A stretch of 64,000 nt of DNA, from positions 1-64,000 of IMG/VR virus record IMGVR_UViG_3300020112_000604; one strand, given 5' to 3'. The position numbers and the translations under genes were made by a program. The stretch comes from a virus (lineage: Duplodnaviria; Caudoviricetes). The notes beneath the pieces are model-generated. The model was not told where the DNA came from and made no database searches. It worked only from the letters and a program-made list of their open reading frames with translations. Below are positions 13,519 through 49,634 of this stretch, in pieces (position 1 is the first letter of the stretch; the number at the start of each line of letters is the position of its first letter).

Positions 13519-13554
13519 GAGGAAGAGCCAATTAGGTTCTTCCTCTTATATTTT
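13519..13554 (+). terminator. Intrinsic terminator
   Basis: GAGGAAGAGCC-AATTA-GGTTCTTCCTC followed by TTATATTTT. Confidence 0.7.
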
Positions 13555-13680
13555 GGGAAAGTCAAACATTTCAGTTGTATACTATTATAGTGATAAGGAA
13601 CAAGAAAGCATCGTCCTTATTACATAAAACAATAGCCTATGATGCAGGGCACATTAGTACTTAGGAGGTACATTACTATG
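13555..13680 (+). repeat. Conserved early promoter plus structured 5' leader, copy 1
   Basis: GGGAAAGTC...TTGTATACTATTATAGTG, hairpin with GCATC loop, GCCT-ATGATGCA-GGGC, then GTACTTAGGAGGTAC and ATG; same architecture at 20618 and 49512. Confidence 0.85.
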
Positions 13681-13938: not shown

Positions 13939-13972
13939 GAGGAGACGTCTATGACGTCTCCTTATTTTTTTT
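13939..13972 (+). terminator. Intrinsic terminator
   Basis: GGAGACGTC-TAT-GACGTCTCC followed by TTATTTTTTTT. Confidence 0.8.
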
Positions 13973-13989: not shown

Positions 13990-14014
13990 TTTTAACTTAT
14001 ATATTATAAGGGTG
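13990..14014 (+). promoter_or_regulatory. Early (virion RNAP-type) promoter
   Basis: TTTTAACTTATATATTATAAGGGTG, with a TATATTAT core as in phiKZ/AR9 early promoters; followed by a 5' hairpin. Confidence 0.7.
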
Positions 14015-14058: not shown

Positions 14059-14574
14059 ATGATTATTATGCCTAATTGGTGCGAAGGAGAACTTCGTGTA
14101 AGAGGACCACTTCAGAATCTTTTAAACTTCTTTCAGTATGGACTGCGTTTAACAGACCATACGTACTGTACGAAACCATTCAAACTGTTTCCGGTAAGAA
14201 TCGACACATCATGTTTCGGACCGGATGATGAAATCTATATATCCATACGTGATACGTGTTGGGTTAAAGGTTCATCCAGAGCATTTGTCGACAACGACGA
14301 AATAACAATTTACAAGCACAAATTCGATCCTGAAACGGAACAGGACATCTACTATGCGACAATTCCTACGATACGGCAGGCATGGAGTTTCGAAGCTGAT
14401 ACATATCTCGAACTGGCACGAACGTTCGGGGTAGACATTAAGATTTGGGGCGCTATGTGCTATCAGGAATTTGAACAGGAAATCGTGATAGAGAAAGGAG
14501 AACTAATCCGAGACGAGGAACACGACTACGATGATTGGGTTTGGGAATCAAGATTCCCGACTAATGGTTATTGA
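14059..14574 (+). CDS. Phage protein of the MPNWC / DUF1281 (YubB ferredoxin-like) type
   Basis: N-terminal MPNWCEGELRVRG and later QAWS...LARTFGV pattern typical of this family. Confidence 0.5.
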   Translation: MIIMPNWCEGELRVRGPLQNLLNFFQYGLRLTDHTYCTKPFKLFPVRIDTSCFGPDDEIYISIRDTCWVKGSSRAFVDNDEITIYKHKFDPETEQDIYYATIPTIRQAWSFEADTYLELARTFGVDIKIWGAMCYQEFEQEIVIEKGELIRDEEHDYDDWVWESRFPTNGY

Positions 14575-14590
14575 TGAAAAGGAGAAAATT

Positions 14591-16768
14591 ATGAATCTTA
14601 CAAACTATGAAGAATATGGTGTATTTGAAGAATTTGCAAGAACAGGTTTTCAGAGAATATATCCGGCTAAGCTCACCAAGAAGAATATTGAGAAGTATCG
14701 AATCGGTCTTCTTAATGTATTCAAGGATGGTGTTGAGCAGAATGAAGTACATGACGGAAGAATAGAGTTATATTGGGAAGAAGATAAGAAGTGTAAATTA
14801 TCACTTCAGGATACATTCATCAATATAGTACTTTGGTCAATGCTGGTATCTCTTGATGCTAAGATTGAACCATACAATTTATTTTATAGTAAGAATGTCA
14901 CAGGCGGCGACATCAAGGATTACATCGATACAAACGTTGTAAACAAGTATATCGACAAGGTTGATATTCTGATTCTTAACAGAACCATTTATAATGGATA
15001 TAAACATCTTATGGATATCGATATCTTCGCTGAATATCTGGCAAACACATTCGACCTTTACGATTTCGTAGAGCTGGCCGAAAAGTGTCCAGAAGTAGCG
15101 GAGATGTTTGACAGAGACTACTCAGACATTCCGATTGAAGAAATCAATGACTTCGGTGATAAGATAAACGCAAGGTTTATGGAAATCATCGAAAAGGAAA
15201 GTAAGTTATTCATCGGAAGAGACCATTGTTGTGCAAATGCGATAAGAGCTAAGGCAGGACTTAGTCCACGTCAGTTTAAGGAGCTTTCAGTAAACATCGG
15301 AACAAAGCCTGACGGACGTGGTTCAATCTATCCACATATCATCAACACATCATTCATCAACAGAGGTCTCGATTCATACGAATCAATCTTTGTTGAGACT
15401 GCATCGGCAGGACGTTATGCTCAGATCATTGCAAAGGGTAACGTTGCATCTTCAGGTGCATTCGCTCGAATCCTTGGTCTGAATAATATGGATACATTCT
15501 TAAATGATGATCCGCATTATACATGTAATACAAAGAACTTCGTTCGTCTTACAGTAACTTCAAAGAAGATATTCAATATGATTATCGGACGTTACTATCG
15601 TTGGACAGAATGTGGTGATGATCATTGTATCAGGGAAAAGGATAGAGATGACCTTATGGGCAAGACTATCCTTTTGAGAGACCCAATGACTTGTCAGAGC
15701 AAGGCTATGGGTTGTGGTATCTGTTACAAGTGCTATGGTAAGCTTGCTTACAATAACTGCACAATCAATATCGGTAAGATTGCAGCTGAAATACTTTCGT
15801 CAATCCTGACACAGCGTCTTCTTTCAGCTAAGCATCTTCTTACAGCAAAGCCAATCAAGATTGTATTCGGAGACATGTTCGGAGACTTCTTCTGTAATGA
15901 AGAAATGATGATAACTGTAAATCCGGAAGCAATCACAAAACACGCATTTGTCAAGATTGACATGGATTCAATCGAGTCTTCATTATCTGATGATGACGTT
16001 GACAATGAAGAAGAGGCTGCACTTGACATGAACGAATTTGTTAACGAATTCATTCTTGAAGTTGACGGTGTAGAATATCCTATGCATTCAGAAGCATTCG
16101 ACCCGTTATATCTCACATCAGAGTTTACGGATATCCTTAACAGGACACGTCCAAACTACGATGGTGAAAAGACATATAAGGTCATAGCACTGAATGACCT
16201 TAACGGAATAGCATTATTCCAGTTACCTCTTGTAAACAACGAACTCGTTAAAGCACTTAACGATATCAAGCACATTATCAATCTTACAAAGGTAACTTCA
16301 TCACTCAGCAAGGACGAAATCTTACAGAAGTTCCTTGAAGCTATCGTTCAGGGTGGTCTGTCAATTCATTCATCACATGCATCGGTTATCATCAGTAATC
16401 AGATCAGAGACAAGAATGACATTCTTGAAACTCCAGACTGGTCTGTACCGAATCAGACAAACTATCAGATTCTGCCGCTCTCCGCATCATTAAACAATCA
16501 TCCATCGGTAACAATCAGTTTAATGTATCAGGGAATCTCAAGAATGCTGGTAACGCCAACAACCTTTAAGAAACACAAGTCATCACGTATGGATCTGTAT
16601 TTCATGCAGAAACCTCAGAAATTCCTCGCAGGTACAGATAACTACGTGCAGAAGACAGCAACCAATGAACATGTTAATCCACTCGGAGCACCTCATGGAG
16701 CCGATTGGAAGACAAGGGAACAGGCATATCGCAGATATCTTGAAAAGATGGCTGCGCGCGAAGACTAA
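14591..16768 (+). CDS. Multisubunit RNA polymerase beta' C-terminal subunit, probably non-virion RNAP (phiKZ gp74 / AR9 gp154 type)
   Basis: Bridge-helix-like AGRYAQIIAKGNVASSGAFARIL, zinc site RDPMTC...GICYKCYG and trigger-loop-like IGKIAAEILSSILTQRLLSAKH. There is no DxDGD motif, so the enzyme is split. The gene lies downstream of an early promoter; SD AAGGAG precedes ATG 14591. Confidence 0.88.
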   Translation: MNLTNYEEYGVFEEFARTGFQRIYPAKLTKKNIEKYRIGLLNVFKDGVEQNEVHDGRIELYWEEDKKCKLSLQDTFINIVLWSMLVSLDAKIEPYNLFYSKNVTGGDIKDYIDTNVVNKYIDKVDILILNRTIYNGYKHLMDIDIFAEYLANTFDLYDFVELAEKCPEVAEMFDRDYSDIPIEEINDFGDKINARFMEIIEKESKLFIGRDHCCANAIRAKAGLSPRQFKELSVNIGTKPDGRGSIYPHIINTSFINRGLDSYESIFVETASAGRYAQIIAKGNVASSGAFARILGLNNMDTFLNDDPHYTCNTKNFVRLTVTSKKIFNMIIGRYYRWTECGDDHCIREKDRDDLMGKTILLRDPMTCQSKAMGCGICYKCYGKLAYNNCTINIGKIAAEILSSILTQRLLSAKHLLTAKPIKIVFGDMFGDFFCNEEMMITVNPEAITKHAFVKIDMDSIESSLSDDDVDNEEEAALDMNEFVNEFILEVDGVEYPMHSEAFDPLYLTSEFTDILNRTRPNYDGEKTYKVIALNDLNGIALFQLPLVNNELVKALNDIKHIINLTKVTSSLSKDEILQKFLEAIVQGGLSIHSSHASVIISNQIRDKNDILETPDWSVPNQTNYQILPLSASLNNHPSVTISLMYQGISRMLVTPTTFKKHKSSRMDLYFMQKPQKFLAGTDNYVQKTATNEHVNPLGAPHGADWKTREQAYRRYLEKMAARED

Positions 16769-16853: not shown

Positions 16854-18419
16854 ATGAATAAGATAGAAGTATGCTTTTCATACATCAAGATTAACGACTA
16901 TGACCAAGGAGATTGTCCGGCTTTAGAGAAACTATTCCGTATCTGGAATCAGGCTTATCATAGAGTCGAGTATCATCATATTAAATTTGATAAAGAACAC
17001 AGATGTTTATACCTGCCTAGAGGTATGGACGTATTCACTGTTGAACGTTGTTTACATGCTAAAGCATGGTTCAATAACGTTCCTAGCAGATACGAAACTA
17101 ATCCGCAAATCGGAATGAAGTTTCCGCCAAGAGATGAGAAACAGAATGAAACACTTAAGTTCCTTACTGGTGCAAACGAATATCGTGCTTATAAGAACTA
17201 TTCACAGTATCTTGTAGCATTATCACCGGGTGTCGGTAAGACGTATGTATCCACAGCGTATATTGCTATAACTGGTCTTAAGGCTATGGTTATATCATAT
17301 AATCTGTCTGACCAGTGGATGGAAAGAATCGGACAGTACACTGATATACTGCCACAGGAGATATACAATATTCAGGGTGGACCATCTATACAGTCTCTGT
17401 TTAAGAAGACACCTGAACAGCTGTCCAGATATAAAGTATATCTGGCAACACATGATACGCTCAAGTCATTAATGGACCGAGACCCAGACGGACTAGACAG
17501 GCTGTTCAATCATCTGGGTATTGGTATCAAGATATTCGATGAAGCACATAAACAGTTTGAATCTATGTGTGCTATCGACTACGCCACTAACGTCATGAAG
17601 ACTATATATCTCACGGCTACTCCTGTCAGAAATGATTCGCAGGAGAATGATATCTACATGACATATTTCAAAAACGTTCCGAAGATATCACTGTTTGATG
17701 ATGCGGACAAACACGTTAAGTATCTGGCATTAAAGTATTCATCTAATCCGTCGTTAAGAGACATGGATGATTGTATGAGTGCATACGGTTTTAATCGTAA
17801 CTCATATGCTAACTATGTAGTTACTAAGCCAGAGTTCTATCAGATGCTGTACATCATACTGGATATGATTAAGAAGATGCCGGGTAAGAAGCTGATGTAC
17901 TTAGCTTCCAATGACGCTATTCTTACTGTAGAACGGTGGATTAAGGCTGACCCTAGACTATGGTATTACCATGATAAGATTGGTATCTACACGTCTATCA
18001 ATAAGAACAAGCAAGCCGCATTAAAACAGGAATTAATCCTCACAACGAGCGGATCTGCAGGTGAGGGTCTAGATGTACCGGGACTTATCTGCGGAATCAA
18101 TTTAGCCGATCCTACCAAGTCTGAACCCCTTAATAGACAGCGTTTCGAGCGTGTTCGTGCAAAGGGATATTTCATAGATGTAGTTGACGAGGGCTTTAGA
18201 ACCCTTATAAACTACTACTATGCTAATCAGAAGATCTATGCTAACTTCGCGGTATCTACTAACCAGAGTACATATTCTCAGGCTAGATTAGATAAAGAAG
18301 AGGGTAAGATTAACCACAACAATCCTATACCAGGTCATGCATTATTCGGTGCATGTCAGAAATACAATCAAAGAGCTTATGAGGCATATCTCAGAAAGCG
18401 CGGAGTCACAGACAAATAA
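16854..18419 (+). CDS. Superfamily 2 (DEAH) helicase, UvsW / phiKZ gp75-like
   Basis: Walker A SPGVGKT, Walker B IFDEAH, motif III LTATP, motif V GEGLDVP, motif VI-like QRFERVR; follows the beta'C gene as in phiKZ. Confidence 0.88.
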   Translation: MNKIEVCFSYIKINDYDQGDCPALEKLFRIWNQAYHRVEYHHIKFDKEHRCLYLPRGMDVFTVERCLHAKAWFNNVPSRYETNPQIGMKFPPRDEKQNETLKFLTGANEYRAYKNYSQYLVALSPGVGKTYVSTAYIAITGLKAMVISYNLSDQWMERIGQYTDILPQEIYNIQGGPSIQSLFKKTPEQLSRYKVYLATHDTLKSLMDRDPDGLDRLFNHLGIGIKIFDEAHKQFESMCAIDYATNVMKTIYLTATPVRNDSQENDIYMTYFKNVPKISLFDDADKHVKYLALKYSSNPSLRDMDDCMSAYGFNRNSYANYVVTKPEFYQMLYIILDMIKKMPGKKLMYLASNDAILTVERWIKADPRLWYYHDKIGIYTSINKNKQAALKQELILTTSGSAGEGLDVPGLICGINLADPTKSEPLNRQRFERVRAKGYFIDVVDEGFRTLINYYYANQKIYANFAVSTNQSTYSQARLDKEEGKINHNNPIPGHALFGACQKYNQRAYEAYLRKRGVTDK

Positions 18420-20617: not shown

Positions 20618-20740
20618 GGAAAGTCTCTCATTTCAGTTATATATTATTATGGTGATAGGGAAATAGACGCATCACCTTATCTAATATAAGTAAACGCCCA
20701 TGATGCAGGGCATATATGTACTTAGGAGGTACTAATTATG
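20618..20740 (+). repeat. Conserved early promoter plus structured 5' leader, copy 2
   Basis: GGAAAGTC...TTATATATTAT...GATAGGG[..GCATCA]CCTTATC...GCCC-ATGATGCA-GGGC...GTACTTAGGAGGTAC...ATG. Confidence 0.85.
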
Positions 20741-34018: not shown

Positions 34019-34043
34019 TATTTTGATGTTTAACATTATAATG
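34019..34043. promoter_or_regulatory. Back-to-back divergent late promoters
   Basis: Minus strand AACA-TCAAAA-TA (34030-34019); plus strand AACA-TTATAA-TG (34032-34043). Confidence 0.6.
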
Positions 34044-34145
34044 AGAGGTAAAACAACACCTCCATCTTTAAATTCTGTTTCTGTTCGCAAATCATCGCCT
34101 CCTAAGTCCCCATCCGGTTCGGCTCGGATGGGGAAATTTCTTTTC
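34043..34145 (+). ncRNA. Candidate small RNA with exposed anti-Shine-Dalgarno sequence
   Basis: Late promoter, 5' hairpin GAGGT/ACCTC, pyrimidine-rich body with CCTCCTAAGT, then terminator TCCCCATCCG/CGGATGGGGA plus a T-rich tail. No plus-strand gene upstream explains the terminator. Confidence 0.5.
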
Positions 34146-34157
34146 TACACAACCCGA

Positions 34158-49421: not shown

Positions 49422-49511
49422 AGATGTATTCCTCCTTTAATATTACACACCTATTGTGTGCTACAACATATATTATCTTAAGGTTATGTGTTCTTTCCAA
49501 AATTACAAGTT

Positions 49512-49634
49512 GGGAAAGTCGAATCTTTCGATTGTATACTATTATAGTGATAGAGAATATAAAAGCATCACTCTATTAATAAATGAAAACGCCTATGATG
49601 CAGGGCAAAGAGTACTAAGGAGGTACTAAAAATG
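49512..49634 (+). repeat. Conserved early promoter plus structured 5' leader, copy 3
   Basis: GGGAAAGTC...TTGTATACTATTATAGTG-ATAGAG[..GCATCA]CTCTAT...GCCT-ATGATGCA-GGGC...AGTACTAAGGAGGTACT...ATG. Confidence 0.85.

Follow-up and report, generated by a model that had tools for sequence, protein, structure and literature searches.

A three-hairpin 5′ leader repeated at early promoters of an uncultivated AR9/PBS1-like jumbo phage

An uncultivated jumbo phage of the AR9/PBS1 type carries a recurring structured 5′ untranslated RNA of 80–89 nt (~87 nt), each copy of which, judged from its sequence, is joined to an early promoter of the AR9 type. The leader consists of three hairpins, P1, P2 and P3, and comparison of its copies shows that this architecture is real and is kept by compensatory mutations. 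The DNA analysed, called the window below, is a 64-kb stretch comprising bases 1–64000 of a 183,720-bp IMG/VR virus record that is ~75% complete and has 39.5% G+C.

Copies, promoters and genes of the leader module

The first-pass annotation described three copies of the module in the window; the upstream box, the TATAYTAT core, P1, the GCATCR block, P2, P3 and the start codons were all found where it had placed them (Table 1). The three copies align at 82% mean column identity, and a 12-mer spanning the P2 loop and its 3′ arm has exactly three perfect matches in the window. Searching the rest of the genome by pattern and with a covariance model made from the copies added three more and brought the total to exactly six in the 184-kb record, the P2 loops of the copies outside the window lying at +120482, −100813 and −161336. 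The repeated promoter and leader module proposed earlier is seen in six copies in the record and in eight in a sister phage.

Table 1. Coordinates of the leader units within the window
Unit	Feature	Position	Strand	Details
1	Intrinsic terminator	13519–13545	+	After the upstream 2604-aa gene; left border of the unit
1	Early promoter	13556–13591	+	Box 13556–13563; core TATACTAT 13578–13585; six-base spacer
1	P1	13592–13621	+	8 bp, from the predicted +1 (13592); loop block GCATCG 13608–13613
1	P2	13635–13650	+	4 bp; loop ATGATGCA 13639–13646
1	P3	13657–13671	+	Around the SD
1	Gene, 68 aa	13678–13884	+	Start codon 13678; homologs behind leaders in relatives
1	Intrinsic terminator	13939–13963	+	Closes the monocistronic unit
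2	Early promoter	20618–20653	+	Box 20618–20625; core TATATTAT 20640–20647; spacer
2	P1	20654–20681	+	7 bp including one G-U, from the predicted +1; block GCATCA 20669–20674
2	P2	20696–20711	+	Fourth pair C-G, not U-G; loop 20700–20707
2	P3	20718–20732	+	Around the SD
2	Gene, 156 aa	20738–21208	+	Start codon 20738; followed by a terminator-like hairpin
3	Early promoter	49513–49548	+	Box 49513–49520; core 49535–49542
3	P1	49549–49577	+	Both partners of pairs 5 and 6 differ from those in the other copies; block 49565–49570
3	P2	49591–49606	+	Loop 49595–49602
3	P3	49612–49626	+	Around the SD
3	Gene, 103 aa	49632–49943	+	Start codon 49632; heads a small operon

The assignment to AR9/PBS1-like phages agrees with the polymerase genes. 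A beta-prime fragment of a multisubunit RNA polymerase is encoded at 14531–16768, and its best isolate relatives are those of Bacillus phages AR9 and PBS1 (~29% identity). With another beta-prime-like gene near 113 kb of the record, two are present; like AR9, the phage has split multisubunit polymerase genes. Its dockerin genes suggest a cellulolytic Firmicute as the host.

In AR9, early promoters are used by the injected virion polymerase and have the consensus AAATATATATTAT-6N-G(+1) (PMC5312081). The leader promoters, with TATAYTAT, six bases and a G, match this consensus in all six copies, and thus share with AR9 and PBS1 the AT-rich TATATTAT core, the six-base spacer and the G at +1. A consensus scan for a sigma-70 promoter at the leader found none, and that candidate was dropped. 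In the whole genome there are 18 such early-type sites with the same T-rich upstream signature, that is, the six leader copies and 12 others; six of the 18 have very short leaders that start with the SD, and the remainder have other leaders. The early-type promoter at 14000 precedes the operon with the polymerase beta-prime gene, a homolog of AR9 g154, and the beta-prime gene is early in AR9 (PMC5312081). GTC at the distance of the upstream box GGAAAGTC recurs in other early promoters, so the box is in part general promoter context; in part it reflects common descent of the leader copies.

Some features of the other early promoters were observed in passing. The census sites include 14000, 18474, 33037 (−) and 46845 (−) of the window. 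The minimal early leaders, about one third, begin with GAAAGGAGG, placing the SD at the 5′ end, while several leaders outside the module carry their own hairpin at or near +1. A relative has a further early leader, L085:8724–8790, in which the same complementary blocks (GAUGCAU and AUGCAUC) pair with each other as a simple 5′-proximal hairpin. Early promoters also occur in tandem, at 49469 (early-promoter-like) and 49535 of the window, at 8 and 96 of L201, and in L374; in L201 and L374, the upstream promoter is followed by a degenerate leader copy with a P1-like hairpin that lacks the loop block.

With the core-6N-G geometry of AR9, P1 begins at the predicted +1 or +2 in 16 of 16 full copies. 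The first-pass annotation had expected transcription to start just before P1, and this geometry indeed predicts +1 at the first base of P1. Because the AR9 spacing sets +1 there, P1 would be a blunt 5′-terminal hairpin with +1 on its first G, a prediction extrapolated from a phage whose polymerase is only ~29% identical.

The downstream genes are unrelated, as had been claimed, the six proteins having no mutual BLASTP similarity. Those of 68, 156, 103, 89 and 62 aa have no Pfam or PHROG match, and the 525-aa protein is ABC-transporter-like. Each unit runs in the order of terminator, promoter, leader and gene, with a terminator again for copies 1, 2 and 6; these three units contain one gene each, and their own terminators follow straight after. 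The 525-aa gene, encoding a membrane domain and an ATPase, is preceded by the copy 6 leader and occupies 161303–159726 (−) of the record. The 68-aa protein encoded after copy 1 is one of a small family that diverges fast and shares an HTT(T/S)AWY motif (window, L336, L341 and L085), and whose members are all encoded behind leaders; the syntenic member in the sister phage is only 37% identical.

Paired stems and the candidate loop–loop contact

Each copy in the record, folded alone, gives P1, P2 and P3 as the minimum-free-energy (MFE) structure, and the SD-enclosing P3 noted earlier is found in all three window copies; the z-scores of single-sequence folding are modest (−0.5 to −2.6). When 16 full sequences including those of relatives were folded singly, all formed the three hairpins, except that P2 is weak in L087 and that P3 has been replaced in L340, its whole stem around the SD having been exchanged for a different one. 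L374 has the same hairpin arms by inspection. P3 has only 4–6 bp, and a loose test finds SD-flanking stems at 27 of 120 other start sites; its loop carries the AGGAG of the ribosome-binding site, 2–6 nt upstream of the start codon.

That structure is conserved more than sequence, as the first-pass annotation had seen, is borne out by compensatory changes in all three stems. In a conservative hand register, pairs 5, 6 and 7 of P1 each vary on both sides. Pair 1 of P2 changes from G-C to C-G and pair 2 from C-G to G-C, while pair 4 is U-G, C-G or U-A, with U-G the commonest (11 of 17 sequences). In P3, pair 1 changes from G-C to A-U or U-A, and pair 3 from A-U to U-A or C-G. In a model-fitted alignment, 100% of the cells hold standard pairs versus 30–50% with the partners slid by 1–3 columns, 11 pairs are changed on both sides, and none of 500 shuffles reaches the observed values, to be read with the caveats that this alignment is fitted to structure and that four sequences are register-shifted in P1, which inflates the P1 counts. 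Gene conversion has, furthermore, homogenised many of the copies, which are paralogs or orthologs of one another, so that counting cells overstates the number of independent compensatory events. The frequent G-U pairs correspond to A-C on the opposite strand, so that the fold is specific to the sense transcript, and on this evidence the element is an RNA and not a duplex-DNA site. No Rfam family matches it, a comparison that had been proposed earlier: with Rfam 15 there are no matches in the window at the gathering level, and at E up to 10 there are 11 weak ones, none overlapping a leader in the six loci.

The loops are even more constant than the stems. All 17 full-length leaders have GCAUCR, which ends the P1 loop on its 3′ side, and UGAUGC, the core of the 8-nt P2 loop; these blocks are the best-conserved RNA segments (0.94 and 1.00, compared with 0.46–0.61 for the linkers and the rest of the P1 loop). 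In all 17 the two blocks are complementary over six bases, or over five plus a G-U pair, the G-U occurring in copies 1 and 6 of the record. The first-pass annotation was right on the complementarity and on the G-U pair in copy 1, and the complementarity is kept in every full-length homolog. An isolated loop–loop duplex has a predicted energy of −6.4 to −8.1 kcal/mol. Five of the six pairs never vary and one alternates between A-U and G-U; for a possible seventh, eight copies have U-A and L087 has C-G. Of the contact proposed from these blocks, the complementarity recurs in additional homologs, but covariation is absent, both blocks being invariant. An intramolecular kissing contact is plausible from the sequences, and the helix that it would form could stack on P1, whose 3′ strand directly follows the first block. 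The blocks stand 22 to 27 nt apart, a variation that an RNA tolerates but that sits awkwardly with a rigid DNA operator. Mutual pairing alone needs no invariance; that the loops are invariant while the stems drift hints at third-party recognition and suggests that the loop sequences are also read by something else. A genome-wide hairpin search for a trans partner of the loops gave no convincing one, the best candidate lying inside a gene. An upstream ORF starting from the AUGAUG of the P2 loop was also considered and dropped, as it lacks an SD and is constant neither in length nor in its frame with respect to the main gene.

Partner blocks in two hairpin loops are shared with ColE1 RNA I/RNA II, the HIV-1 DIS and L2–L3 of purine riboswitches. 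In the HIV-1 DIS loop, the core is flanked by an A on each side. The 8-nt P2 loop has the same layout, with an unpaired A on either side of a six-base Watson–Crick core in a small loop. Unlike those systems, the putative contact here would be intramolecular and would join tandem hairpins across an 11–16-nt linker, without a three-way junction, and the element is the leader of a phage mRNA.

Relatives and concerted change among the copies

Several searches place the leader among relatives of this phage. The leader region has no megablast match among GenBank phages, and a single-protein search of IMG/VR for relatives of the polymerase found none. Alignment of the helicase in IMG/VR gave 80 loci, all at 45% identity or less, while homologs of the neighbouring helicase (16854–18419) from 81% identity downwards were present in Logan and ENA assemblies. 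Complete leaders stand at the site syntenic to copy 1 in L087 (74% helicase identity), L201 (66%) and L374. In L085 (79%), the leader at this site is truncated upstream of P2, and the P2-loop core is kept. One JGI metagenome yielded eight further leaders on seven contigs (L335–L341) from a sister phage with 91–96% nucleotide identity; six of the eight are orthologous to the six of the record and two are additional.

Toward more distant phages the leader is lost from sight. The 57% relative L090 still has hairpins resembling P1 and P3 but has lost both loop blocks together. A 5′ hairpin with AUCAUCA in its loop and a downstream UAUGAUGC was noticed in a 54% relative (L093:1772–1934); it was not counted because in the MFE fold that block is part of a stem, and because coding sequences commonly contain the 8-mer. 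Among distant IMG/VR relatives (helicase at most 45% identical), the covariance model on 30 whole records and the pattern on 50 gave only weak or chance matches. In scans of IMG/VR, the P2 motif had 71 matches and the two-loop pattern more than 116, all of them by chance and lying mainly in coding regions; the covariance model accepted none. Separately, in L095 and L096 (52% helicase identity), a 62-aa gene at 17541–17729 of each has a precomputed Pfam match to the Acb2/Tad1 hairpin, which suggests an anti-CBASS or anti-Thoeris sponge.

AR9 itself offers a partial likeness. Its early UTRs are 26–340 nt long (PMC5312081), and an unexplained motif in them is mentioned in the same paper. Some of these UTRs, for example those of g292, g152 and g200, open with a hairpin when folded. 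The long ones, in contrast to the leaders here, fold without the two loop blocks, and the covariance model finds nothing significant in AR9, whose polymerase is ~29% identical. Since the leader is missing from AR9 and from the searched relatives with helicases of 45% identity or less, the recognisable family is therefore, as far as these sequences go, confined to a narrow uncultivated clade.

A double change in P2, with the second pair flipped, is found in five of eight sister-phage copies versus none of six in the record. L341:8316–8402 is the same as L337:2118–2205 in P1, linker and P2 and differs only between P2 and P3, despite sitting at the copy-1 locus. By these sequence patterns, leader copies evolve in concert inside each genome. 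In addition, contigs of relatives from independent samples stop inside or at the leader (L085:1–61, L087–L089:1–96, L372 and L373), and the contigs with the L085 gene all end within it; a multi-copy repeat accounts for assembly breaks at such sites.

A possible stabilising leader and competing explanations

On balance the sequences slightly favour a portable leader acting after transcription, shielding the 5′ end and displaying the ribosome-binding site, and possibly recognised via its loops. The promoter–leader unit would act as a movable cassette before unrelated, mostly small, early genes, in some cases as monocistronic units bracketed by terminators. P1, from +1 onward, would form a base-paired blunt 5′ end that hinders 5′-end-dependent decay, whether by pyrophosphohydrolase, by RNase J1 or through RNase E/Y entry, as may be compared with the ompA, papA and aprE leaders. 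The loops would kiss, and the resulting helix would stack on P1 and draw the A/U-rich linker into a compact fold. The weak P3 would show the SD and meter or gate ribosome access, by itself or through a factor. In this manner, the leader might give a subset of early mRNAs a common programme of stability and translation.

Known 5′-terminal stem-loop stabilisers such as ompA, papA and aprE (cited in PMC3997798) are the nearest precedents for this proposal. In E. coli ompA and papA and in B. subtilis aprE, a 5′ stem-loop is combined with strong ribosome binding, and here, too, a hairpin at the extreme 5′ end, as placed by the predicted start, is followed by a strong SD; the transferability of the leader between genes is a further likeness. 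Those stabilisers differ in having neither a conserved second hairpin nor loop–loop complementarity. As in the targets of CsrA-type repressors and T4 RegB, a short hairpin loop of the early phage mRNAs exposes GGA or GGAG from the SD, whereas a second GGA site is not conserved here and searches of the record found no CsrA, RegA or RegB homolog.

This last likeness belongs to the main competing explanation, possible though on the whole unlikely, in which the leader is a recognition platform for a trans-acting RNA-binding protein or small RNA that times an early regulon off or on, the binding determinants being the invariant loops or their kissing helix together with the GGA-in-loop P3. Invariant loops on three covarying stems suit sequence-specific recognition over simple pairing, one leader on unrelated genes defines a co-regulated set, and the P3 loop shows AGGA over the SD, the layout that CsrA-type repressors bind and T4 RegB cuts. 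There is also a small-RNA candidate at 34041–34146 (+) of the window, with a late promoter (AACA-6N-TG) and a strong terminator at its end. A single-stranded stretch of it, CCUCCUAAGU, is exactly complementary to ACUUAGGAGG, a sequence found elsewhere in the genome only in leaders 1, 2 and 4, and the 10-mer ACTTAGGAGG occurs four times in the genome, in these three leaders and as antisense in the candidate. The match is suggestive but short: it covers ten bases around a generic anti-SD core, and copies 3, 5 and 6 differ at the targeted bases. Against a trans factor, moreover, the 184-kb, 75%-complete record yielded no homolog of CsrA, RegA or RegB (the RegA and RegB searches having no positive control), and no other hairpin in the genome with a matching loop stands out. 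If the modules were instead just a duplicated promoter and ribosome-binding site, alike through recent duplication and gene conversion, the homogenisation of copies within each genome (five of eight against none of six for the P2 change, and the identity of L341 and L337 over P1, linker and P2) and the breaking of relatives' assemblies inside the leader, as repeats do, would follow directly. This is nonetheless quite improbable, for stem substitutions are overwhelmingly pair-preserving, with all cells pairing against 30–50% after sliding; the linkers diverge freely and the loops do not; the architecture is kept where the flanking helicase is only 66–79% identical; and 12 other early promoters in the genome do without the leader.

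Two further explanations fare worse. The inverted repeat GCATCA...TGATGC lies directly 3′ of the promoter and both of its half-sites are invariant in the manner of an operator, so that it could be a DNA-level site for a dimeric protein or a post-initiation signal for the virion polymerase. The half-site spacing, however, ranges over 22–27 bp, which would rotate one site relative to the other, the G-U pairs of P1 and P2 become A-C mismatches on the other strand, and P1, P2 and P3 covary, which duplex DNA would not need; a DNA-level function is accordingly very improbable. Still harder to credit is that the leader senses a ligand as a riboswitch or acts in processive antitermination like the HK022 put RNA; in favour one may point to a structured RNA right after the promoter, a loop–loop contact like that of purine riboswitches, and an SD within a hairpin. 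Rfam gives no match even at E up to 10. The riboswitch-like sensor that the first-pass annotation had listed among its options is unlikely, as the leader has no multi-helix junction, no conserved pocket and no alternative expression-platform helix competing with P3; it is composed of three independent hairpins with variable linkers, and its few conserved unpaired bases are confined to the two loops. As for a put-type element, units 1, 2 and 6 end at their own terminators after a single gene, and so leave nothing to antiterminate.

A more far-reaching reading, rather doubtful at present, is that the kissing complex of the invariant loops serves as a recognition signal for a dedicated factor, or for a late small RNA pairing with the P3 loop, and that this times the shut-off of accessory early genes. 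If true, the leader would be a phage-specific switch marking a regulon of virion-polymerase transcripts, and we know of no such post-transcriptional switch in jumbo phages with their own polymerases. Structured mRNA leaders and 5′ stabilisers are as such known; what appears to be new is the three-hairpin architecture, the way it is coupled to a virion-polymerase promoter and its regulon-like spread over several copies, and a full-text literature search found no description of such a leader.

Being compact, the leader lends itself as a candidate intramolecular kissing-loop fold to in vitro probing, for which the uncultured host is no obstacle, and if it stabilises mRNA in Firmicutes it could become a portable expression part. 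Jumbo phages of the AR9 and phiKZ type use their own polymerases, and to our knowledge post-transcriptional control in them is almost unknown. A covariation-supported, multi-copy leader that marks a subset of early genes would offer a testable handle on mRNA stability and translation in such phages.
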